A stretch of DNA of 64,000 nt from Bacteroidia bacterium (GCA_019695215.1 JAIBAK010000007.1:1149-65148), one strand, 5' to 3'; counted from the first letter of the stretch, positions 3-19,050 are shown. The notes: generated by a model from the letters alone, not told the origin. A program made the numbers and translations.

Positions 3-2676
<2,674 letters not shown>

Positions 2677-2691
2677 AATAAACTATAGCAC

Positions 2692-2726
2692 AAAAAAGCC
2701 CGGTGAGATTCATCGGGCTTTTTTAA
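2692..2726. terminator. Bidirectional rho-independent terminator shared by eno (+) and the convergent minus-strand operon
   Basis: AAAAAAGCCCGGTGA-GAT-TCATCGGGCTTTTTT has a 9-bp stem with an A6 run before it and a T6 run after it. It overlaps the stop codon of the minus-strand gene ending at 2723. Confidence 0.75.
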
Positions 2727-3406
2727 TCCTTTATTGGGATTAAACGGATATTGTCTATATCAATAAGAATAAAGCTTTTCACGGTCCCTTTCATCTTCTT
2801 AAATGTAATAATATCACCGTTAGGAATACCGCCAATATATATGAAATCTTGCCGTTCGTTAAGGAAAAATGTGATTGTATCTGTAAGTGTCACCCATTTT
2901 CTTTTTGGGAAAAAAGAGCTGTCGGGCGTATAAAGTGGATGATGAGTGCCACATGAGTTTTCCTTCCCAAATTCATTTGGATTTTTTAACAATCCATAAT
3001 TCAGTAGCCGATAGTTTAATTTATTGGTAGCGTACTTTGAATCCTCAGAAGTTCGCACATCTATTTTCAAAACAAAACGCCTTGGCCCAGAATTCCCCCA
3101 ATTTGTATCCAGAGGAAGTACTATATCCCCTTTTAAGTTTGCATCAGCATGTTTGTATAAACTGTTTACATGCCATAAATAGATAACCGAATAAACTTCC
3201 CCGTCCGAAGCTGTATCAGATACTGGTTTACCTTTACTTTCTTTGACAAAACCAGCAGGCCCGTTTATATAATAAATGGGCCCATTAACAGAATACATCT
3301 CCGCATTTTCCACGTAAGTTTCAAAGCTCCCATTCTTCACAATATTCTGCGATGTTACACTAAGACTGATCATGCAACAAAGAAAAACTGCTAAGGTTTT
3401 TACCAT
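2723..3406 (-). CDS. Hypothetical secreted protein with an N-terminal signal peptide. It is the last gene of cassette 1 and a candidate immunity protein for the upstream effector-like gene.
   Basis: MVKTLAVFLCCMISLSVTSQ is a signal peptide. Its start overlaps the end of the upstream gene by 7 nt. No recognisable catalytic motif. Confidence 0.55.
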   Translation of the reverse strand: MVKTLAVFLCCMISLSVTSQNIVKNGSFETYVENAEMYSVNGPIYYINGPAGFVKESKGKPVSDTASDGEVYSVIYLWHVNSLYKHADANLKGDIVLPLDTNWGNSGPRRFVLKIDVRTSEDSKYATNKLNYRLLNYGLLKNPNEFGKENSCGTHHPLYTPDSSFFPKRKWVTLTDTITFFLNERQDFIYIGGIPNGDIITFKKMKGTVKSFILIDIDNIRLIPIKD

Positions 3407-3969
3407 CTTGTATTAGTAATTATTCTACCAATTTGTTTAAATCTAGTGTTAGAAGTGCCACTACAAAAAATCTGAATCTCCACCTTTGATACATTATCAA
3501 CAATAAACTCATTACTCTGTTCAACCTCAGATTGTGTAATATTAGTAATTGTAAAGCCCCCTGCCCATCCGCTTCTTGGTTTCTGTGTTATTATACCACG
3601 AGAAAACTGTGATCTAACATTATCAGCCCGATTCTGTGATAAATTAACTCGCCTTAATAAATCTGCTAGCCCTTCCGGTGTTTCATAATCAATAGTTGCA
3701 GAAAGAACCATTTTACTCGTTATATAAACAGCATCTTCACTAAGGATAAGGGAATTGAGCGTGTTCAGACCTGCCAGTTGAGTCTCATTAAGAATAGCAC
3801 TCCAATTTGGAAAATTTATAGACGCTATTGGCAAGGGGTCAAGGGGTCTTGTCAAAAAATTTCCATCCCTATTTTCTGGTGCTATCCCAAAATCAGCCTT
3901 AAAGCTAGAGAGCCAATCTTCTGATAACCTTCCCCCTTTTGCCCACGGATTTTTAAATTCGAATGCCAT
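3400..3969 (-). CDS. Effector-like protein E1. It has the conserved N-terminus MAFEFKNPWAKGG shared with E2 and E3, followed by a unique C-terminal region of unknown function.
   Basis: Its N-terminal 12 aa and the junction with the upstream gene (stop, 2 nt, ATG) are conserved with the genes at 8268-8831 and 9797-10324. No signal peptide. Confidence 0.6.
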   Translation of the reverse strand: MAFEFKNPWAKGGRLSEDWLSSFKADFGIAPENRDGNFLTRPLDPLPIASINFPNWSAILNETQLAGLNTLNSLILSEDAVYITSKMVLSATIDYETPEGLADLLRRVNLSQNRADNVRSQFSRGIITQKPRSGWAGGFTITNITQSEVEQSNEFIVDNVSKVEIQIFCSGTSNTRFKQIGRIITNTRW

Positions 3970-3971
3970 AA

Positions 3972-5654
3972 CTATGCGGGATTTGAGGTTGGATTACAAT
4001 TACACCCGCTTTGAGGCACATCGCAACAATCAGTGAATACCTTTTTGTATAAGGTGGCCTTTTCAGTTGCATCGGTAAGCCCTTCTATTATATCAATAGC
4101 TTGTTGTTTAGCTACGTTTTCAAGATTAGCCTGCACAACAGCTGCATCCTGTAACTTGAGGTTGAAGCAATCCAAAGCCTCGCCCTGTCCCAGCAAAGCA
4201 TCAACAATTACTGAGTCAGTAGGTAACACGCGGCTTTCTACACTTTTTATTATACCATTAACTGTAATCCCCTCAGCCGTCATAGAAAGTCCTGTGTTTT
4301 TACGGAAGTAATCTTCAGTAAATTTCACACTACCTGTAGCGGAATCGTAAACATTCTCCGTTCTTTTTTCATAAAAGGTTTGCCTGGTTCCGGTGTAATC
4401 ATATACACTGTAATATTGGTCAACTATATCCTTAAAAACGTTGTCGGCATCTGTGGTGTTATTGAAAATACTTTTAAGTAAGGCTAATAATCCATCAACT
4501 TTAACTACTTGTTTAGTTTCTTCATACCCATTGGTATAAACAAATGAAACATCATCCAGATAAGTTATTGTAATGAGTTCCTGATTGAGTTGACGAAAAA
4601 CAAAATTGAGTACCCGACTTTTGTTTATATTTTCCAATATCCTAACAATACTGGTTTCGGTAGAGGTGGTTTCTGAGGTAGAGGTCTCTGTATTGATATC
4701 AAGTTTTCGGGATACCACTGATTTCTGAACCTGCTTTGATATTGCATTTGCCAATAATTTAATGTTCTCAGCTCGCAGCCCATTCATTGTAACTCCATTG
4801 GAGGAGCTACTCGAAAAGGAAGCTGCTCCTTTGCCACCGAACAATGGTATATTTAAGCCTGAACCGCTCTGTGAAGCCATATTATATCCCCCTGACTCTG
4901 TATGACTTTGAAGGCTGTCAATCTGAAGCATCTTTTCAAGCTCCTGGGTACTATCATTTGTTAAAGAATCAATAACATTCTGATAGTCTTTTTTGCTTTG
5001 GGTTGTTTGCTTATAACTCTTAATACTGATGGTGGTTTTCTCGCCCGGCAGCAATGTAAAAGTCTTAACAGTTTCTCCCGCACCGTAATCTCCAAGGTAA
5101 GTATTTACTCGATAATGCTCTATTACTGTAAGTCTTGGAACTGCACTAGCTGGTTGTTGCCTGAATTCAATTTTTTGATTGCCCATAATATCCACAACTG
5201 TTACAGGCATTCCATAAAGAGATTGAACTGCAATGCTACTTACAGCTTGTCCGGCAATAGTATAATCAGCAACCGGACTTGAAGTAGGGGCTGATTCAAA
5301 ACCCACCAAACTTGCAAGTGAATACTGTGGCGCAGCACTTACTGTTGGAGTTTCCTCTTCTGAATTTACATTTACAATATTGGGTGTGCCTACAGCTATA
5401 AAGTTATTTGCCATACGCGCGGTAATAGTTGAAGCATCCAGTCCGGCAACTATATCATAGTAGTTACCGCTAGGGGGCGAATCAAAACCTGCACCAGTTT
5501 TAAAATAGCTGCTGTTCACATCTAAGGGAATGTAAGCATTGGCAACAAACCCATTTGTTTGCGGAATGTTGTAATCAAGTTTGGGTGTTGAACCTGTTCC
5601 CCAATCGGTCATTGGATCTTTGTTGATGCAGCTTGATGGTGTTGTTTCTGGCAT
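3972..5654 (-). CDS. Hypothetical 560-aa protein. No signal peptide, Ser/Thr-rich, with a Cys-rich C-terminus ...LYKKVFTDCCDVPQSGCNCNPTSNPA.
   Basis: Long ORF with coding-like composition. Its last ~33 codons are duplicated in the 51-aa fusion ORFs at 8834-8989 and 10327-10482. Confidence 0.6.
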   Translation of the reverse strand: MPETTPSSCINKDPMTDWGTGSTPKLDYNIPQTNGFVANAYIPLDVNSSYFKTGAGFDSPPSGNYYDIVAGLDASTITARMANNFIAVGTPNIVNVNSEEETPTVSAAPQYSLASLVGFESAPTSSPVADYTIAGQAVSSIAVQSLYGMPVTVVDIMGNQKIEFRQQPASAVPRLTVIEHYRVNTYLGDYGAGETVKTFTLLPGEKTTISIKSYKQTTQSKKDYQNVIDSLTNDSTQELEKMLQIDSLQSHTESGGYNMASQSGSGLNIPLFGGKGAASFSSSSSNGVTMNGLRAENIKLLANAISKQVQKSVVSRKLDINTETSTSETTSTETSIVRILENINKSRVLNFVFRQLNQELITITYLDDVSFVYTNGYEETKQVVKVDGLLALLKSIFNNTTDADNVFKDIVDQYYSVYDYTGTRQTFYEKRTENVYDSATGSVKFTEDYFRKNTGLSMTAEGITVNGIIKSVESRVLPTDSVIVDALLGQGEALDCFNLKLQDAAVVQANLENVAKQQAIDIIEGLTDATEKATLYKKVFTDCCDVPQSGCNCNPTSNPA

Positions 5655-5692
5655 GATAAGTTGGTTTTAAATTAGTAATTAAGAATAGATAA

Positions 5693-6682
5693 TTATGAAC
5701 TATAGTTATGAATAACTTTATGATTAAACACATAGCCGTTGCGAGTGGTAACGGTTACGTAATACAATCCGGAGCTTGAAATAAAAGGGAGTGCCAGCAT
5801 ATTTCTATTATCAATATGGGAAGATTGAACAACCCGTCCCATTAAATCTGTGATAACTATTTCAGTAATTGCATCCTGTTCACACAAATATTTTATTTCA
5901 AGATTCTCCATTACCGGGTTAATAATTTCAGGTATGACAGAACTTATTGGTGAAGAAACTCCTGTCGGGTTAGCTTTACCTGCCAAAATATTTATCTCCG
6001 CCTGTGTTAATATCCTGCTATAAAATCTGGCTTCGTCAAGTTTACCGTCATACCAATGCCCCATATTTGTATTAGTTAAACTCTGTGGTGTCGCATCGGG
6101 CACTTTCCCCGCGAACGAAACAGTCTTCACTTTTGCAGCGTCTATATACAAATCAATTACGGAAGTACTTCTGTTCACGTTTATTGATAGATGATGCCAC
6201 TGATTATCTAAAAGGGCTGTATTGGTATAGAGCAATTCCGCCTGGTCCGACAGAAAACTTGCTCTAATAATAAAATCAAATTGCCCCTTTACAAACTCAT
6301 TTGCAATTAAACTGACTCCCCTGTCATAAGGAGCATCAGTAGCATATAAAAAATCAATTTCATTTTGGTCATTTGTCATAAACCAGAATGAAATATTAAA
6401 ACTTGTAGAAGTACCAAAGGAGAGTGCTCCGTTAGAAACATTCATTTTTATTGCTGCATCTGATGAAAACAGCAATGCCTGATTTAGGTTGCTTTTTCTA
6501 TCGTAGGTGAAGTTAACTGTCCCCCCGCTGGCTAAAAATTTTGTAACCGTTGCCCCATTACCGGAAGCATCAGAAAGACTATTTGTAAACGGCAAATACA
6601 TAACGAGGCCCTGAGTGAGATCCTGACAGAAAGCATATCCTGAAATTGTCATTAAGATGATGACCAAATAAACTCTTTTCAT
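5693..6682 (-). CDS. Secreted LamG / concanavalin-A-like lectin domain protein with a C-terminal sorting domain for type IX secretion (T9SS)
   Basis: Signal peptide MKRVYLVIILMTISGYAFCQ. The LamG-like core includes DNQWHHLSINVNRSTSVIDLYIDAAKVKTV and GKLDEARFYSRILTQAEI. The C-terminal ~70 aa (...GLYYVTVTTRNGYVFNHKVIHN) match the T9SS CTD pattern. Confidence 0.7.
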   Translation of the reverse strand: MKRVYLVIILMTISGYAFCQDLTQGLVMYLPFTNSLSDASGNGATVTKFLASGGTVNFTYDRKSNLNQALLFSSDAAIKMNVSNGALSFGTSTSFNISFWFMTNDQNEIDFLYATDAPYDRGVSLIANEFVKGQFDFIIRASFLSDQAELLYTNTALLDNQWHHLSINVNRSTSVIDLYIDAAKVKTVSFAGKVPDATPQSLTNTNMGHWYDGKLDEARFYSRILTQAEINILAGKANPTGVSSPISSVIPEIINPVMENLEIKYLCEQDAITEIVITDLMGRVVQSSHIDNRNMLALPFISSSGLYYVTVTTRNGYVFNHKVIHNYSS

Positions 6683-6783
6683 AAGTACAAACAGTTAATA
6701 TTTTACCCAAAGTTGAAAATAATATTTCACATATGCAACTTTTTTCTCAAAAATTGTTAACTAAGATATACGGCCATTACGAT
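6626..6783 (-). promoter_or_regulatory. Conserved upstream block, copy 1. It covers the putative promoter/operator, the 5'UTR and the first ~19 codons. The 18-nt core AAAATYGTYAACTAAGAT lies at 6749-6767 (plus strand).
   Basis: Near-identical to 8933-9090 and 10426-10563. The core motif recurs at 11148-11165. Each copy sits 62-85 nt upstream of a minus-strand ATG. Confidence 0.55.
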
Positions 6784-6848
6784 AAATCCATCCTGCACAT
6801 GGTGGGGCTATGAGTTTAGGTCAATAACAAAACGGCCAGGCTTTACTA

Positions 6849-7520
6849 CTACTCCTTCCATGCTTGCTGAACTTCCTTCAACGCTAATTCCATTAACAAA
6901 AAAATTCGGTTAACAGTCCCCCTTAATTTTTGCAGTTCATCAGGCAGCTCTTTTACGGGATGTGGTCCATCAAAATAAAAATACCAAAAACTTTTTATCT
7001 CCTTATCACTACGCTTAGCTAATAATTCCAGGAAAACACTAGTATCAGATTTTAATTTCTCCTGCATTGCGTGCTGAAAATAACCCACACCATCAGCATA
7101 CCACCTGCCATTGATACTTATATCAATCATTCGGTTGTAATATTGATTTTTGGGTATTACAGTTAATTTAAAAAATGCTTCTACATATAAATAAGCTTTG
7201 TTATATAAGGGGCTGTTGAAATCAGAAACCGGCTCTCCTAAAGGGTCTTTGTCTGAGTATCCAAATAAATGGTTGAACAAGTTAAACGTATTTGGAAAAG
7301 CAGCAAAATATTCTTGTTGATACTTAATTGTATATGGTGAGGAAGATACTTTTTGATATGCCCTTTTTAATTGCTCCGCTTTTTTTATTCCGTTTAACTG
7401 AGTATCCGCAACATTTGCATTTGCAATATTTCGGCAAGTTATATTCGCTGTACAACTTGAAAACAATTGACTAAACAATACTATAATAAATAATTTCATA
7501 TCATCGAATGGGTAGGTCAA
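6849..7520 (-). CDS. Hypothetical lipoprotein or secreted protein and candidate immunity protein. The real start is probably the internal Met at 7499 (MKLFIIVLFSQLFSSCTA).
   Basis: Signal peptide with a lipobox-like SSC. It lies between effector-like gene E2 and the upstream block of cassette 1. Confidence 0.5.
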   Translation of the reverse strand: MTYPFDDMKLFIIVLFSQLFSSCTANITCRNIANANVADTQLNGIKKAEQLKRAYQKVSSSPYTIKYQQEYFAAFPNTFNLFNHLFGYSDKDPLGEPVSDFNSPLYNKAYLYVEAFFKLTVIPKNQYYNRMIDISINGRWYADGVGYFQHAMQEKLKSDTSVFLELLAKRSDKEIKSFWYFYFDGPHPVKELPDELQKLRGTVNRIFLLMELALKEVQQAWKE

Positions 7521-7557
7521 AAATGGTCATCGTTGGAACGAGTTAAGATATTTCTAC

Positions 7558-8256
7558 CTATTGAGGTTCTACTTTGAACCACCATTTAGATTTAGGATGC
7601 CCGCTTGTAATCTTAAAAACTAATTTGCTTACTCCCTTCAAAGGTATAGTTACAGTTTGTATACTGTTAGTATTAGTCATTTCTGTTTTATAAAGTTGTA
7701 ACCCATTTTTATCTTCTACTATCAGCTGGTCTGATTCATTGTAAAAATGATAACTCAACCTTATCGCTGTTACTTTGCCAGTGAGTTGCAGTTCTTTTAC
7801 GCTGTTTCCTTCGCCAAGATAGGAATCCTCTTTATTAGCATCTGGAATTCTTTCATACTTTTCAACGATACACTCTCCATAATTAAAACAGATTTTTAGT
7901 AATTTACCTGTACCTCCTTTTATATACAGGGTAAGTTCCGCACTGGAATCGTGAAAGGTGACGTTCGTAGTAAACTTCCTGTTCTTTAAGGTTATTTTTT
8001 TATCCTTGGGATCATATATCCAATTCCCTTGCTCTATTGTTGGAATTTGGGTAGTAACACTGTAACAATCATTAAGAATTTGGTAATTGCCATCAGGATT
8101 AAATACTAACATATCAGGACACTCAACTGCTTGCTTTTTACTATTCTCAACACCCTTATATTGCCATCTACCGATTATTTTATGAGAAGCATTTTGAGCA
8201 TAGGCAATACCGCTTATCAACAATGCAATCAGAATAAAATTTACACCTGTTTTCAT
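7558..8256 (-). CDS. Hypothetical secreted protein with a signal peptide. It lies immediately downstream of the M23 effector and is a candidate immunity protein.
   Basis: MKTGVNFILIALLISGIAYAQ is a signal peptide. It is co-oriented with E2 at an 11-nt spacing. Confidence 0.55.
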   Translation of the reverse strand: MKTGVNFILIALLISGIAYAQNASHKIIGRWQYKGVENSKKQAVECPDMLVFNPDGNYQILNDCYSVTTQIPTIEQGNWIYDPKDKKITLKNRKFTTNVTFHDSSAELTLYIKGGTGKLLKICFNYGECIVEKYERIPDANKEDSYLGEGNSVKELQLTGKVTAIRLSYHFYNESDQLIVEDKNGLQLYKTEMTNTNSIQTVTIPLKGVSKLVFKITSGHPKSKWWFKVEPQ

Positions 8257-8267
8257 ACTTATATCGA

Positions 8268-8831
8268 TTAGGGTCCAAAGAAATATGGTGTTGGGTCAAC
8301 CCATTTGCCTCCTATCATTACCTGAACATGAATATGTGGTGTTATATCCTTGGGATAACCCAAATCTCCTAAATTAGCGGCCGTTCCTATTAATGTTTTT
8401 CCCCCAATTACAGTGTATGGACTCCATGCATTGATTTCACTAGGAATATTTACATATAAAATTCTCACTTTCTCAATCTCAATTGCAGAATCTGAAGGTG
8501 TAATATCTATCATTGGTTTTCCAGATGATGAGCCAATATAATTTACCGCTTTCCCAGTTACTGGAGATACTAAATCTTGCCCAACTATGGTTAAAATATC
8601 TATACCCATATGTTTACGGGCACCTCCGCTACGAGGAGCACCAAAGTGACCATTCCCATATGCATCCTGCCCCCTCAAAGCACCTCCACTTGGGTTGAAT
8701 AATAAGCTTACATCCGTGATATTCCTTTTAATAGGTATAACTGCCCCCTCTAGTGCCGTACCATTTATTCCAAACCATTTATCAAACTCTCTGTTACCTT
8801 TTCCCCAAGGGTTTTTAAATTTCAATGCCAT
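8268..8831 (-). CDS. Effector-like protein E2. Conserved N-terminus MALKFKNPWGKGNREFDKWFGINGTALEG... fused to a C-terminal M23 (LytM/lysostaphin-type) metallopeptidase domain.
   Basis: H-x-x-x-D motif (RKHMGIDIL) and an HxH motif in TPHIHVQV, aligned with the M23 consensus GPHLHFEV, at the spacing typical of peptidase M23. N-terminal 36 aa almost identical to E3. No signal peptide. Confidence 0.7.
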   Translation of the reverse strand: MALKFKNPWGKGNREFDKWFGINGTALEGAVIPIKRNITDVSLLFNPSGGALRGQDAYGNGHFGAPRSGGARKHMGIDILTIVGQDLVSPVTGKAVNYIGSSSGKPMIDITPSDSAIEIEKVRILYVNIPSEINAWSPYTVIGGKTLIGTAANLGDLGYPKDITPHIHVQVMIGGKWVDPTPYFFGP

Positions 8832-8833
8832 AT

Positions 8834-8989
8834 TTATTCGGGATTTGAGGTTGGATTACAATTACACCAGCTTTGAGGAACATCGCAACAATAAGTAAAC
8901 CCCTTTTTGTATAAGGTGGTGGCATGATTAGTACAGAAAAGAGAACCCGAAATTGTAATTAAAAGCATGACCAAATAAATTCTTTTCAT
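8834..8989 (-). CDS. Unannotated 51-aa fusion ORF: MKRIYLVMLLITISGSLFCTNHATTLYKKGFTYCCDVPQSWCNCNPTSNPE. It joins the signal peptide of the LamG gene to the Cys-rich tail of the 560-aa gene.
   Basis: Read on the minus strand. ATG at 8989, TAA at 8834-8836, then AT, then the E2 ATG. Residues 1-19 match the LamG N-terminus and residues 24-51 match the 560-aa C-terminus. Its first 81 nt are identical to the ORF at 10327-10482. Confidence 0.6.
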   Translation of the reverse strand: MKRIYLVMLLITISGSLFCTNHATTLYKKGFTYCCDVPQSWCNCNPTSNPE

Positions 8990-9090
8990 AAGCACAAACA
9001 GTTAATATTCTATCCAAAGTTGAAAATAATATTTCACATAAGCAACTTTTTTATCAAAAATTGTCAACTAAGGTATACGGCCATTACGAT
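8933..9090 (-). promoter_or_regulatory. Conserved upstream block, copy 2, with the core motif at 9056-9074
   Basis: Aligned with copies 1 and 3. It sits upstream of the fusion ORF and E2. Confidence 0.55.
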
Positions 9091-9168
9091 CGAGAACTCC
9101 CCCGGCAATATATGTGGATGATATTTGTTTACATGCATTAATCTCGGATTATTCAAGCTTTGCTGCTA

Positions 9169-9768
9169 TTACCAAGTGTAATTTTTTATATCAAACCTTT
9201 CAAGAAAGGTTATTTTCCATCTTCCTTTTTCCTTTTTCGCTTTAACAAGGTAATCAAAATCGCCTCCCCATGTCCAATAATAGGTTGCAAAGTCATTATC
9301 CAATTTAATATTCTTAATCATTAATCTACTCCATATATCCGAAGGGTAATCCTGACAGTTACACCATTCGTCAGCATCATTTCCGTAAGGAGGTAATTCT
9401 CCTTTATAGTATTTAACCTGGTTATCATTTAGTTCTTTGTCTAGGTACAACGCAATTTTCATGTAGTTATCTATAAATTCCTGAGTAAAGAAATTTGTTT
9501 GGGATAATTCTTCCATTCTGGATTTCTGAACAAGCCAATCAATCCGCTCATAAATGCTGTCATTATCACTTGTAAGAGGGAAATCTCTATTGGTGTCAAC
9601 CTCATGCCACTTCAACAAATTCTTTGTTAAAGCCAAAAGTTCTAAACTATCAGTAGATAACTGTATATAGGCATGGCTATTTGTACCTGTGTCTTTCTGA
9701 GTATGTACACAACTAAAACTAATTACAAGTATTGAAACTGCTGATACCAGGCCATTAAATAATTTCAT
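9169..9768 (-). CDS. Hypothetical lipoprotein and candidate immunity protein for E3
   Basis: MKLFNGLVSAVSILVISFSCVHTQ is a signal peptide with a lipobox Cys. It lies directly downstream of E3. Confidence 0.55.
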   Translation of the reverse strand: MKLFNGLVSAVSILVISFSCVHTQKDTGTNSHAYIQLSTDSLELLALTKNLLKWHEVDTNRDFPLTSDNDSIYERIDWLVQKSRMEELSQTNFFTQEFIDNYMKIALYLDKELNDNQVKYYKGELPPYGNDADEWCNCQDYPSDIWSRLMIKNIKLDNDFATYYWTWGGDFDYLVKAKKEKGRWKITFLERFDIKNYTW

Positions 9769-9796
9769 ATTCTATTCCTCCTTAAAGGGTAAGTGT

Positions 9797-10324
9797 TCAT
9801 GAGTTATTGTCAGTCCAACGGAATATTGCGTACATAGAATTTCTATACCCACTTCCGGGAAATTCGTTTTTCTCCTTAAAATCACTTAACCATTGATTAC
9901 CGTTGTACATATCAATATGACCATACTGGCTACCCCCGGGATATGGTTGAAACACCCTTATATCTCCTTTAATAGGTGAATAATTTGTACTACTTAAAGT
10001 ATTGAATCCCCAGCCCTGCAAAAAAGGTCCATAATCTTTTGCGGATACTGGATGAGGGTTTGTATTTATACCGCCCGCTTCTAAAGCTAATCTGACATAT
10101 TTAGCACATGCGTGCTGAGAAACTACTTTAGCATTATTGTCTAACCAGTTTACAGCTTTGTCAATATTGAAACTCGATTGGAATCCACCCACATTAACAT
10201 TACCACCATCCGAAATATCTCTTTTAATAGGTATAACTGACCCCTCCAATGCCGTACCATTTATTCCAAACCATTTATCAAACTCTCTATTACCTTTTCC
10301 CCAAGGATTTTTAAAGGAAGCCAT
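9797..10324 (-). CDS. Effector-like protein E3. Conserved N-terminus MASFKNPWGKGNREFDKWFGINGTALEG... with a C-terminal putative CHAP/NlpC-P60-like Cys-His hydrolase domain.
   Basis: A candidate catalytic Cys (SQHACAKYV) and a candidate His (GDIRVFQ...GHIDMY) sit at the spacing seen in CHAP amidases. The domain call is tentative. Confidence 0.55.
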   Translation of the reverse strand: MASFKNPWGKGNREFDKWFGINGTALEGSVIPIKRDISDGGNVNVGGFQSSFNIDKAVNWLDNNAKVVSQHACAKYVRLALEAGGINTNPHPVSAKDYGPFLQGWGFNTLSSTNYSPIKGDIRVFQPYPGGSQYGHIDMYNGNQWLSDFKEKNEFPGSGYRNSMYAIFRWTDNNS

Positions 10325-10326
10325 AA

Positions 10327-10482
10327 CTACAGAGAATTTGAGCTGGGATTACAATTACACCCACTTTGCGGCACATCGCAACAATCAGTAAACACCTTTT
10401 TGTATAAGGTGGTGGCATGATTAGTACAGAAAAGAGAACCCGAAATTGTAATTAAAAGCATGACCAAATAAATTCTTTTCAT
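10327..10482 (-). CDS. Unannotated 51-aa fusion ORF, copy 2: MKRIYLVMLLITISGSLFCTNHATTLYKKVFTDCCDVPQSGCNCNPSSNSL
   Basis: Same architecture as 8834-8989. The stop TAG at 10327-10329 is followed by 2 nt and then the E3 ATG. Confidence 0.6.
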   Translation of the reverse strand: MKRIYLVMLLITISGSLFCTNHATTLYKKVFTDCCDVPQSGCNCNPSSNSL

Positions 10483-10563
10483 ATGCTAAACTTTAAGATT
10501 ACAGTCAAAGTTGAGAATAATATTTCACATTCGCAACTCTTTTTAAAATCGTCAACTAAGATG
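10426..10563 (-). promoter_or_regulatory. Conserved upstream block, copy 3, with the core motif at 10545-10562
   Basis: Aligned with copies 1 and 2. Confidence 0.5.
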
Positions 10564-10612
10564 CATATATTGTTACAAGCGTTATTTTGACCAATACCTC
10601 AAAAATGTATGC

Positions 10613-11086
10613 TTATTTATTAGGTGGTAGAATAAAATAATTAGTTAAAAAGATTCTGAAGCATTCAATTTGAGCACCCACTGCTCCAATATCCGCATCA
10701 GTATTATAAAAAGAAGGATTTTGCACCACACTACAAAACGACTCATAAAGCGACCTGTGAGAATTGGTATTATATTGTTGTTCAACTTGAGCAAAAACAG
10801 AGTCAAGTGTATTTTTTTTAATCAACCTGACTAACGGGGTGCCCTTGTTATAAAGAGAAAGATATAAGTCAAAGTACTCCTCATGAATAGTATCTCCATT
10901 AGTTGAACTTTTGTGATAAACTTTGAACAAATCTTTAAATACATTGAACGACTTAGTATCCCTTTCTAATTTTATTGCAACTCTGGGAAGTAGCGTATCA
11001 TTCAAGCAAACGAGTCTTTCCTGCGGATAGCAGATAGCTATATGGTGCAAACTGCCAAAAAGGAAGATGAAAAATAAATGCTTCAT
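10613..11086 (-). CDS. Hypothetical secreted protein with a signal peptide, preceded by a fourth copy of the AAAATCGTCAACTAAGAT motif. Possibly an orphan immunity-like gene.
   Basis: MKHLFFIFLFGSLHHIAICYPQ is a signal peptide. The motif at 11148-11165 lies 62 nt upstream of the ATG. Confidence 0.5.
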   Translation of the reverse strand: MKHLFFIFLFGSLHHIAICYPQERLVCLNDTLLPRVAIKLERDTKSFNVFKDLFKVYHKSSTNGDTIHEEYFDLYLSLYNKGTPLVRLIKKNTLDSVFAQVEQQYNTNSHRSLYESFCSVVQNPSFYNTDADIGAVGAQIECFRIFLTNYFILPPNK

Positions 11087-11222
11087 TTTAATCCCATAAA
11101 GTGAATAATACTAATGCAAGCTACTAAAAGAGCAGCGCATTTCATATAAAATCGTCAACTAAGATAGACGCCCTGTTTATAACCCAATGCCTGAGTTAAA
11201 GCAATAACCTTAATTTTGCAAA

Positions 11223-17017: not shown

Positions 17018-17100
17018 AATACAAAAGTAGCCTTTTTTTAGTTTGGTTACATATTCATGATAACGCGAGCATCATTGTTCGGAATAAGTATTAAACTGGC

Positions 17101-17157
17101 ATCTTGCCTGCATTGGTAAGCAGGATGCTTACGAATAGTAAACACGAGGTCGGGGCC
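17101..17157 (+). repeat. Left copy of a ~57-nt direct repeat flanking the ATPase/partner module. It contains a perfect 7-bp hairpin, GTAAGCA-GGA-TGCTTAC.
   Basis: ATCTTGCCTGCATTGGTAAGCAGGATGCTTACGAATAGTAAACACGAGGTCGGGGCC shares about 80% identity with 18882-18937. Confidence 0.8.
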
Positions 17158-18791: not shown

Positions 18792-18881
18792 ACATCAAAA
18801 GTACAAAGAAATATTAATATTCAATAGGACTCTTTACCCGCATAACGTGAGCCTAATTGACTGTGATAAGCATAAACAGGC

Positions 18882-18937
18882 ATCTTTCCTGTGCAGGTAA
18901 GCAAGATGCTTACGAAAATAATTACGAGGCCGGTGCC
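18882..18937 (+). repeat. Right copy of the ~57-nt direct repeat flanking the ATPase/partner module
   Basis: ATCTTTCCTGTGCAGGTAAGCAAGATGCTTACGAAAATAATTACGAGGCCGGTGCC, with the same internal hairpin as the left copy. Confidence 0.8.
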
Positions 18938-18956
18938 ATTGGTAAGTTGCGTGTGG

Positions 18957-19009
18957 ACATCCCCCCTGCCCCCTTCTCCTATGCTGCAAGCCTGCGCTGC
19001 AAGGGGGAC
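18957..19009. repeat. Third, diverged copy of the GC-rich hairpin repeat (CATCCCCCCTGCCCCCTTCTCC...GCTGCAAGGGGGAC)
   Basis: Shares both arms with the tandem copies at 1229-1362. Confidence 0.65.
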
Positions 19010-19010
19010 T

Positions 19011-19050
19011 TTAAAACAAAACAGCCCGACAACTTGCATTGTCGGGCTGT
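19011..19050 (-). terminator. Rho-independent terminator downstream of rpoC
   Basis: CAGCCCGACAA-TGCAAG-TTGTCGGGCTG hairpin followed on the minus strand by TTTTGTTTTAA. Confidence 0.75.

Follow-up and report, generated by a model that had tools for sequence, protein, structure and literature searches.

A repeated 18-nt motif in a bacterial toxin-immunity island as a probable hitch-hiking junction sequence

A motif of 18 nucleotides (nt) occurs four times upstream of start codons in a 64,000-nt stretch of DNA from a Bacteroidia bacterium (GCA_019695215.1, JAIBAK010000007.1:1149-65148), referred to here as the 64-kb window. The copies accompany an island of predicted toxin and immunity genes between eno and divIC, and the initial annotation of this DNA proposed the motif as a promoter or operator from which each gene cassette would be transcribed independently. 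To evaluate this proposal, we compared the island with related contigs that were fetched through homologues of DivIC and of the 560-amino-acid (560-aa) protein encoded in the island; these contigs are designated by L numbers. With a probability of roughly 0.78, the motif is a hitch-hiking junction sequence and not a cassette-specific regulatory site. It spans the point at which the island joins an older conserved element upstream of divIC, and the promoter-like sequences of the cassettes lie downstream of it.

Layout of the island between eno and divIC

The island extends over approximately 8.4 kb (about 2725-11152), is composed of minus-strand genes and lies between the eno terminator and divIC. 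Its boundaries and genes, in window coordinates, are as follows (ORF, open reading frame; T9SS, type IX secretion system; CTD, C-terminal domain).

2692-2724 (+): eno terminator hairpin, the island's other boundary, with its T-run overlapped by the stop codon of immunity 1
2723-6682 (-): main operon, comprising the genes for the LamG/T9SS-CTD protein, the 560-aa protein, toxin 1 and immunity 1
2723-3406 (-): immunity 1 (227 aa)
3400-3969 (-): toxin 1 (189 aa)
3972-5654 (-): gene for the 560-aa protein, of an uncharacterised family
5693-6682 (-): gene for the LamG/T9SS-CTD protein (329 aa)
6849-7499 (-): further signal-peptide gene (216 aa)
7558-8256 (-): immunity 2 (232 aa)
8268-8831 (-): toxin 2 (187 aa), with HxxxD...HxH motifs and a weak LECT2/M23-like match
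8834-8989 (-): 51-aa chimeric leader ORF, module B
9169-9768 (-): immunity 3 (199 aa, signal peptide), directly after the toxin gene
9797-10324 (-): toxin 3 (175 aa), with the shared N-terminal segment of ~35 aa and then a domain related to PDB 4hz9
10327-10482 (-): 51-aa chimeric leader ORF, module C
10613-11086 (-): putative orphan immunity gene (157 aa), with a signal-peptide-like N-terminus
11087-11147 (-): putative decayed toxin 3' stub of ~20 codons, frameshifted, aligned to the toxin ends of L030, L075, L025 and L021
11223-11522 (+): divIC (Pfam DivIC), the longest ORF starting at GTG 11223

Read along the minus strand from the divIC side, the first unit consists of motif copy 4, the 61-nt stub and the 157-aa gene. 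Toward eno, the next unit contains copy 3, a promoter-like block, a 51-aa ORF, the 175-aa toxin and the 199-aa immunity protein, and this is followed by a unit with copy 2, the same block, a 51-aa ORF, the 187-aa toxin, the 232-aa immunity protein and the 216-aa protein. The last unit is the main operon, in which copy 1 and the block precede the genes for the 329-aa LamG/T9SS-CTD protein, the 560-aa protein, the 189-aa toxin and the 227-aa immunity protein.

The toxins have approximately 35 N-terminal residues in common (MA.(K)FKNPWGKGNREFDKWF...) and diverge thereafter, with C-termini that are mutually unrelated. Toxin 3 matches PDB 4hz9 (E = 6e-21), which we take to be the Tae4 peptidoglycan amidase of the Tae4-Tai4 complex. 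The match of toxin 2 to the M23-fold protein LECT2 is weak, and the toxin at the same position in the relative L094 has an Amidase_3 match. The genes downstream of the toxins encode signal peptides, and these two features together, toxin-domain matches and downstream signal peptides, point to a putative toxin-immunity function of the pairs. The conserved 5' part of the toxin genes belongs to a longer repeat, as the segment 3935-4057 is 89% identical to 8797-8919 and 86% identical to 10293-10412, with matches that run from the 3' end of the 560-aa gene into the 5' end of the toxin gene.

The 51-aa leader ORFs are composed of pieces of two genes of the main operon. Their first ~19 codons derive from the signal peptide of the LamG gene and their last ~28 codons (ATLYKKVFTDCCDVPQSGCNCNP) from the 560-aa gene, corresponding to the Cys-rich C-terminal tail of its product (LYKKVFxxCCDVPQSGC). 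In the L166 copy of the leader ORF (~9800-9935, minus strand), codon 10 is a premature TAA, as would befit a scar more than a functional peptide, and the leader ORFs are probably deletion scars and not secreted peptides.

The motif copies and their promoter context

The four-fold repeat is real and bears out the observation from which the initial annotation started. A search of the window with the pattern AAAATYGTYAACTAAGAT, allowing up to two mismatches, gave exactly four matches, all on the plus strand, against an expectation of 0.05 from shuffled sequences; four matches were reached in 0 of 100 shuffles, and allowing three mismatches added no further copy anywhere in the window. This excess over chance is attributable to common descent through segmental duplication and not to independent occurrences of a site. 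The copies, listed in the direction of the island genes, and the neighbouring elements are as follows.

6708-6738 (-): predicted main-operon promoter, with -33 TTG at 6738-6736 and -7 CAACTTTG at 6715-6708
6750-6767 (-): motif copy 1, ATCTTAGTTAACAATTTT
9015-9045 (-): predicted module B promoter, with -33 TTG at 9045-9043 and -7 CAACTTTG at 9022-9015
9057-9074 (-): motif copy 2, ACCTTAGTTGACAATTTT, one mismatch to the pattern (...AAGGT)
10506-10536 (-): predicted module C promoter, with -33 TTG at 10536-10534, a 20-nt spacer and -7 CAACTTTG at 10513-10506
10545-10562 (-): motif copy 3, identical to copy 4 at 19/19 positions, the neighbouring A included
11148-11165 (-): motif copy 4, ATCTTAGTTGACGATTTT, composed of 13 nt of the divIC-upstream element and 5 nt of the island end
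11154-11183 (+): ~30-nt element GTCAACTAAGATAGACGCCCTGTTTATAAC upstream of the divIC promoter, overlapping motif copy 4 by 12-13 nt
11211-11218 (+): predicted divIC -7 box TAATTTTG, aligned with TAnnTTTG boxes in all relatives

The coordinates previously given for copies 3 and 4 stand, and those for copies 1 and 2 began one base early because an extra A had been counted. The minus-strand ATGs at 6682, 8989, 10482 and 11086 were confirmed; they lie 67, 67, 62 and 61 nt, respectively, from the near (promoter-proximal) end of copies 1 to 4, and all island genes neighbouring the copies are on the minus strand. Copies 1 to 3 are embedded, as had been described, in a longer conserved block, which is evident in repeats of 158 nt (6626-6783 and 8933-9090, 89% identity), 363 nt (8711-9072 and 10207-10560, 87%) and 143 nt (6626-6767 and 10426-10562, 79%). 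The tract that copy 4 shares with copy 3 is only 19 nt long, with every position identical, and copy 4 does precede a stand-alone gene with a signal-peptide-like N-terminus, the 157-aa gene.

Promoters of Bacteroidota have the consensus -33 TTTG / -7 TAnnTTTG [PMC7641319]. In the window, the 20-39-nt bins before the ATGs of long ORFs contain six TAnnTTTG sequences, where about 0.5 would be expected. The block downstream of copies 1 to 3 contains TTG-N20-CAACTTTG, with five of the six specified bases, 31-33 nt before the ATG, the usual distance for housekeeping promoters of this group, and the 18-nt motif lies outside it. This assignment fits the genome because of the enrichment of TAnnTTTG at 20-39 nt, and in L002 a perfect TAGCTTTG occupies the position aligned to CAACTTTG. 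The units headed by copies 1 to 3 (modules A-C) therefore most likely start, as judged from this consensus, at a Bacteroidota-type promoter (TTG-N20-CAACTTTG) inside the block. The motif contains neither of the sigma-A elements of Bacteroidota (-7 TAnnTTTG, -33 TTG/TTTG) and ends approximately 8-11 nt upstream of the -33 sequence, which would place it at about -47 to -64 of the predicted promoter, and thus not in the core promoter. What follows copy 4 is TAGCTTGC alone, at 37 nt from the ATG, and the closest box resembling a -7 element there is displaced by about 7 nt when compared with copy 3.

These assignments preserve one part of the cassette proposal and not the other. Copies 1 to 3 each head a unit with its own near-identical promoter-like segment, so these units could be transcribed independently; no intrinsic terminators are predicted between the modules on the minus strand, and read-through transcription is therefore possible as well. 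The proposal that the 18-nt motif is the promoter or operator is not supported, because the promoter-like elements are in the block downstream and not in the motif. The near-equal distance from motif to ATG at copy 4 (61 nt, compared with 62 nt at copy 3) spans unrelated sequence, namely the decayed toxin stub.

We consider it hardly credible that the motif is itself the promoter, with TTGAC as its -35/-33 element, as was suggested initially. TTGAC does match the -35 hexamer of Escherichia coli sigma-70 and lies 61-67 nt upstream of four start codons, but no copy has a matching -10/-7 element 16-23 nt downstream, the genome shows the Bacteroidota -7 signature, and a better -33/-7 pair is present downstream at the canonical distance from the ATG. 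The resemblance is thus to an E. coli-type hexamer and not to the consensus that this organism appears to use. Moreover, the same TTGAC is found in genomes that lack the island, where it points away from any gene on that strand. A scan for sigma-70 promoters found no partner hexamer for TTGAC and returned 37 matches in total, compared with 34.5 in shuffled sequence.

The motif regions gave folding z-scores between -0.7 and +1.4, with no hairpin and no significant secondary structure, and the lack of a hairpin rules out a terminator or attC-like structure at the motif. An RNA element was also rejected, as the Rfam search (E-value mode) returned only a chance-level PhrS match located elsewhere.

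A conserved divIC-upstream element at the island junction

Copy 4 overlaps an element of approximately 30 nt with the consensus (C)GTCAACTAAGRTAGACG(C)CCTGTTTATAAC, situated about 30 nt upstream of the divIC -7 box. The element is nearly invariant in nine aligned lineages, whether or not they carry the island, and its surroundings diverge. It is kept even where DivIC is only 70% identical and is better conserved than the promoter itself, and no other non-coding part of the intergenic region is as well conserved in these lineages; on this pattern of conservation, it is clearly under selection. It is present in L163 (~9937-9966) and in L167, L169, L170, L094, L001, L002 and L166. In the window it is unique, and it has no significant secondary structure. 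The motif has no clear dyad, and the parent element contains two GT-N2-AC boxes (GTCTAC and GTTGAC) 10 nt apart.

The empty site of L163 reads ...GGGCTTTTTTGTGT followed directly by CGTCAAC, and its counterpart in the window reads GGGCTTTTTT, then the island ending in ...ATAAAAT, then CGTCAAC. The comparison shows that the island ends within the motif, whose minus-strand sequence consists of ATCTTAGTTGACG, 13 nt of chromosome belonging to the older element, and ATTTT, 5 nt of island; on the coding strand of the island, the junction is ATCTTAGTTGAC(G/A) joined to ATTTT. The proposal of a cassette-specific site is difficult to reconcile with this structure, since 13 of the 18 nt are already found in island-less relatives, within the conserved element, and are not restricted to carriers of the operon.

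The homology around the junction ends at different points in the different copies. Copy 4 has the full ancestral flank TTATAAACAGGGCGTCT, as in the single-operon and island-less relatives, and its homology with the other copies stops right after ...ATTTTA. Copies 1 and 2 retain about 8-10 nt of the flank (GGCCGTAT) and have a further tail in common (ATCGTAAT). In copy 3 homology begins at motif position 1; its upstream flank was compared with the ancestral flank and rejected as homologous, the match of 7/19 nt being at chance level. The 18-mer is therefore what several homology tracts with different ends have in common.

The related contigs provide a graded series of natural states. In state 0, which has no island, the eno terminator (or, in L169, a 517-aa gene) is followed directly by (C)GTCAACTAAGRTAGACGCCTGTTTATAAC, with the divIC -7 box and start codon at a fixed distance about 30 nt beyond; this state is represented by L163-165 (DivIC 98% identical), L167 (78%) and L169/170 (70%). 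State 1 has one operon and one motif copy each (L094/L099, L001/L006 and L002), in the order divIC, element, island promoter, LamG gene, 560-aa gene, toxin, immunity, eno. In L094 flank, motif and promoter are present as a single copy (...GGGTTATAAACATGCCGTCT ACCTTAGTTGACAATTTT TGAGAAAAAAGTTGCATATGTGAAATATTATTTTCAACTTTGG...ATG), and we interpret these single-operon relatives as the ancestral single-copy arrangement. State 2, found in L166, has one extra module between the main operon and divIC, with the same 187-aa toxin and 232-aa immunity protein as in the window. The window, with three extra units, is state 3.

L169 differs from the other empty sites in the 517-aa gene (8388-9941, plus strand), which has faint metallo-beta-lactamase-fold matches, lies between the eno terminator and the element and has its stop codon inside the divIC element. 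This gene appears to be a second independent insertion at the edge of the element.

Three sets of relatives bear on whether the toxin promoter requires the motif. L166 has two promoter blocks and one motif, which is at the divIC junction. Its LamG promoter reads GCCGTCTA-TTCAGCGGATGGG-TTTTTGAAAAAAAGTTG..., with -33 and -7 sequences almost identical to those of the window and with TTCAGCGGATGGG in place of CCTTAGTTGACAA in the motif core, so that the main toxin operon has its promoter and a destroyed motif core. The unrelated patch (8264-8330, minus strand) replaces 12-13 nt of the core between flanks that are ~95% identical, and in the window a string similar to the patch, CAGGATGGATTT, precedes motif copy 1 by ~17 nt. 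In L002 the distance from TAGTTGAC to the -33 sequence is longer by 14 nt; the spacing between motif and promoter is thus not fixed, and an operator with constant geometry is not supported. The next closest island, in L004/L005 (59% identity, at another genomic site), has no such sequence upstream, and the motif is missing from 80 more distant loci of the 560-aa protein family, an absence that the initial annotation had itself named as counting against its proposal. Because of the destroyed core in L166, the insertion in L002 and the distant loci without the motif, the toxin promoter probably does not need it.

On the same evidence, we regard as unlikely the alternative that the motif, or the 30-nt element, is a protein-binding site (an operator, an activator site or an UP-like element) that serves the divergent promoters of divIC and the toxins alike and is kept for their co-regulation. 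The conservation of the parent element across nine lineages is in its favour, as are the position at about -47 to -64, which is typical of activator sites and UP elements, and the observation that the motif varies no more than the core promoter in copies 1 to 3. The two GT-N2-AC boxes also loosely resemble a GntR-type operator consensus quoted in PMC7641319, but this resemblance carries very little information. Copies 1 to 3 hold only 13-20 of the 30 nt, and the operon of L166, the spacing in L002 and the upstream region of the L004/L005 island speak against such a site for the reasons given. Nor is there a regulator gene in the island, adjoining it or in the syntenic flanks, or another copy of the motif in the 64 kb.

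A site belonging to a wider regulon was rejected because of this lack of extra copies in the window and the unrelated flanks of matches elsewhere. A metagenome scan recovered 64 contigs with the 18-mer. Island proteins are encoded on just one of them, the known relative L099, and 62 of the 64 have unrelated flanks and compositions; these unrelated matches would be random occurrences of a 34-bit pattern. One of the contigs, L101, is an otherwise unrelated, ORF-poor metagenome contig of 2.4 kb in which 25 nt (163-187, minus strand; GGCGTCTATCTTAGTTGACAATTTT) match window positions 11148-11172 at 24 of 25 positions, including 7 nt of the flank. The expectation of such a match by chance was estimated at ~0.01 given 64 matches, and it is probably a chance match.

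Several points weigh against reading the motif as a passive junction sequence. In copies 1 to 3 and L094 the motif is approximately as conserved as the -33/-7 segment (3/18 sites variable), and it may contribute as an upstream promoter element. The 12-nt patch in L166 is not a pattern of neutral drift, and the agreement of the 61- and 62-nt spacings at copies 4 and 3 has only chance as its explanation. The element probably binds a factor relevant to divIC, and a truncated copy of it might keep partial activity. Finally, the promoter assignment and the dispensability of the motif are both deduced from sequence comparison. Segmental duplication that carries along a piece of a neighbouring gene's regulatory element can, as a by-product, place a short repeat equally far from several start codons. 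The motif should not be annotated as an operator here.

Proposed spread of the modules and comparison with other systems

From these sequence relationships, boundaries and natural states we infer an order of events and a recombination mechanism. The toxin island (LamG/T9SS protein, 560-aa protein, toxin and immunity) would have inserted exactly at the distal edge of the element, transcribed away from divIC, and copy 4 would be the original junction beside divIC. The promoter-proximal end of the island would then have been duplicated together with 13-20 nt of the chromosomal flank, and an internal deletion in the upstream copy would have joined the start of the LamG gene (~19 codons) to the end of the 560-aa gene (~28 codons), producing the 51-aa ORF. 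The same two segments make up both leader ORFs of the window and the copy in L166, in agreement with a single deletion event. The resulting block of ~330 nt (motif, promoter, leader ORF and conserved 5' end of the toxin gene) could have served as portable homology, such that modules could be added or exchanged through homologous recombination of the unequal or Campbell type between blocks, giving rise to copies 1 to 3. Each module would arrive with its own copy of the promoter, and the motif would have been multiplied passively with the duplicated promoter region ahead of the extra modules.

A later deletion at copy 4 would have removed the promoter, the leader ORF and most of a toxin gene, leaving ~20 decayed codons and an orphan immunity gene. 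Homologues of the 157-aa gene occur in seven other loci of the family. In all of the five that were read in detail the homologue is downstream of a toxin gene, and in 4/5 it directly follows a toxin ending in ...GGTIYFWEL(K/T)*, the stop and start codons overlapping in ATGA. The 61 nt after copy 4 (TTTATGGG-ATTAAAATGAAGCA) align with the toxin 3' end of L030 (TTTTTGGGAATTAAAATGAAACA), with the ATGA overlap retained and a 1-nt frameshift from one missing base. By this alignment, the 61 nt appear to be what is left of the 3' end of a toxin gene formerly paired with the 157-aa gene. The latter would then be an orphan immunity gene, and copy 4 would end on the right at a deletion endpoint.

The boundaries could also be read as those of a recombination site, an att-like core or hot spot used by the island and its modules in the manner of integrons or rAID arrays, which we judge very improbable. 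The 585-nt segment with the 157-aa gene does lie between perfect 19-nt direct repeats (copies 4 and 3), homology breakpoints cluster within ~20 nt of the motif, and the terminator, the 517-aa gene and the island all abut the GTCAAC edge. However, no recombinase gene is present in or near the island or among its syntenic neighbours, the motif has neither a hairpin nor a clear dyad, and the left boundaries vary between copies (0, ~-10 and ~-17 nt). A deletion reaching into a toxin gene accounts for the right boundary of copy 4, and blocks of 160-360 nt at 79-89% identity suffice for ordinary homologous recombination. That only insertions beyond the edge of the divIC element are tolerated needs no explanation other than selection on the element. 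It is distinctly unlikely, if less so, that the GTCAAC edge is a preferred recombinase-free capture point, used by the island and by the 585-nt segment, and/or that truncated copies of the element bind a factor controlling divIC; in the latter case, the expression of the toxin modules would be coupled to the control of cell division.

The extra units find their closest parallel in polymorphic toxin systems. Loci for contact-dependent inhibition (CDI; cdiA-CT/cdiI) and Rhs loci contain orphan toxin-immunity modules. Alternative MafB-CT cassettes are found in the maf islands of Neisseria [PMC4287609]. As in these systems, toxin-immunity arrays lie beside a main locus, and the island has both variable toxin/immunity pairs and a conserved 5' segment in common with that locus. 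Each extra module keeps ~28 codons of the 560-aa gene and the conserved toxin N-terminus, possibly as recombination homology, and an immunity gene, the 157-aa gene, appears to have been orphaned after toxin loss. Unlike in CDI, Rhs and Maf systems, the extra modules are upstream and not downstream of the main operon, the toxin genes are complete with their own start codons, and each module has the duplicated operon promoter and the 5' end of the first gene. With a promoter copy of their own, the extra modules are probably expressed rather than silent. The delivery machinery also differs, as the 560-aa family with its LamG/T9SS protein is uncharacterised.

The resemblance to other arrays is less close. 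Integron cassette arrays have an integrase, attC sites that are imperfect palindromes and a common Pc promoter. They resemble the island in having a short conserved sequence at the boundary of each unit, but the island has no integrase and no attC-like palindrome, and its units have their own promoters and variable boundaries. The rAID (recombinase-associated acquired interbacterial defence) arrays of Bacteroidales consist of co-oriented short immunity genes with conserved intergenic motifs between them [PMC12247911]. A neighbouring tyrosine recombinase is the defining feature of these arrays, which contain immunity genes only, whereas the island has no recombinase and includes toxins, and its repeat is a duplicated promoter/leader block; the likeness is superficial.

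The surrounding toxin system and its graded natural states are of greater interest than the motif. The series from an empty site through one operon and one extra module to three extra units suggests stepwise growth of a toxin-immunity arsenal in which a promoter/leader block is used again as homology for recombination. Homologues of the 560-aa protein number more than 1000 (E <= 1e-3; loci examined, L006-L085) and are distributed among Bacteroidota, Acidobacteriota, Alpha- and Gammaproteobacteria and other groups. No Pfam or NCBIfam model exists for this family, and the protein itself matched neither collection. In the window, in close relatives and in several distant loci, the 560-aa gene is followed by a variable toxin gene and then an immunity gene. 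An AlphaFold2 model of the protein, of moderate confidence (mean pLDDT 67.8, pTM 0.62), has very long beta-strands. A Foldseek search of this model against the PDB gave nothing significant; the top weak matches were beta-pore-forming toxins (best E = 0.06, TM ~0.1), and assignment of the protein as such a toxin was rejected, since non-significant matches are not usable as evidence. Literature searches found no description of the 560-aa toxin system, which looks like an undescribed toxin-delivery system. It would comprise the uncharacterised 560-aa family followed by predicted toxins that resemble peptidoglycan hydrolases and by periplasmic immunity proteins, and it is present in several phyla besides Bacteroidota.

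Repeats also accompany other loci of the family. In L007 (51% identity), repeated blocks of ~80-120 nt that are peculiar to this relative and unrelated to those of the window, with one promoter-like block among them, lie ahead of the 560-aa gene and the downstream modules (1-125, 3446-3893, 7479-7657 and 9565-9679). Such lineage-specific blocks indicate that module-flanking repeats are a trait of the family. In L013, an island with the 560-aa, toxin and immunity genes lies between direct repeats of 414 nt (4394-4806 and 8456-8867, 93% identity) that are parts of a disrupted GNAT acetyltransferase gene, which suggests integration by a single crossover of circular DNA carrying a gene fragment.

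Two further repeats were observed in the window, both on the plus strand. A 64-nt repeat (TTTCATCCCCCTGCCCCCTTCTCTCATTCGCAAACC...TGCAAGGGGGACAAAAAAGAGA) occurs in tandem just upstream of eno (1228-1291 and 1300-1363) and again 17.6 kb away (18956-19019); its ends are complementary (CCCCCT/AGGGGG), which suggests a small intergenic repeat element. A 44-nt repeat (GGCATCTTGCCTGC...GCAGGATGCTTAC) with an internal inverted repeat is present at 17092-17135 and 18873-18916, the two copies being 1.8 kb apart with 84% identity.

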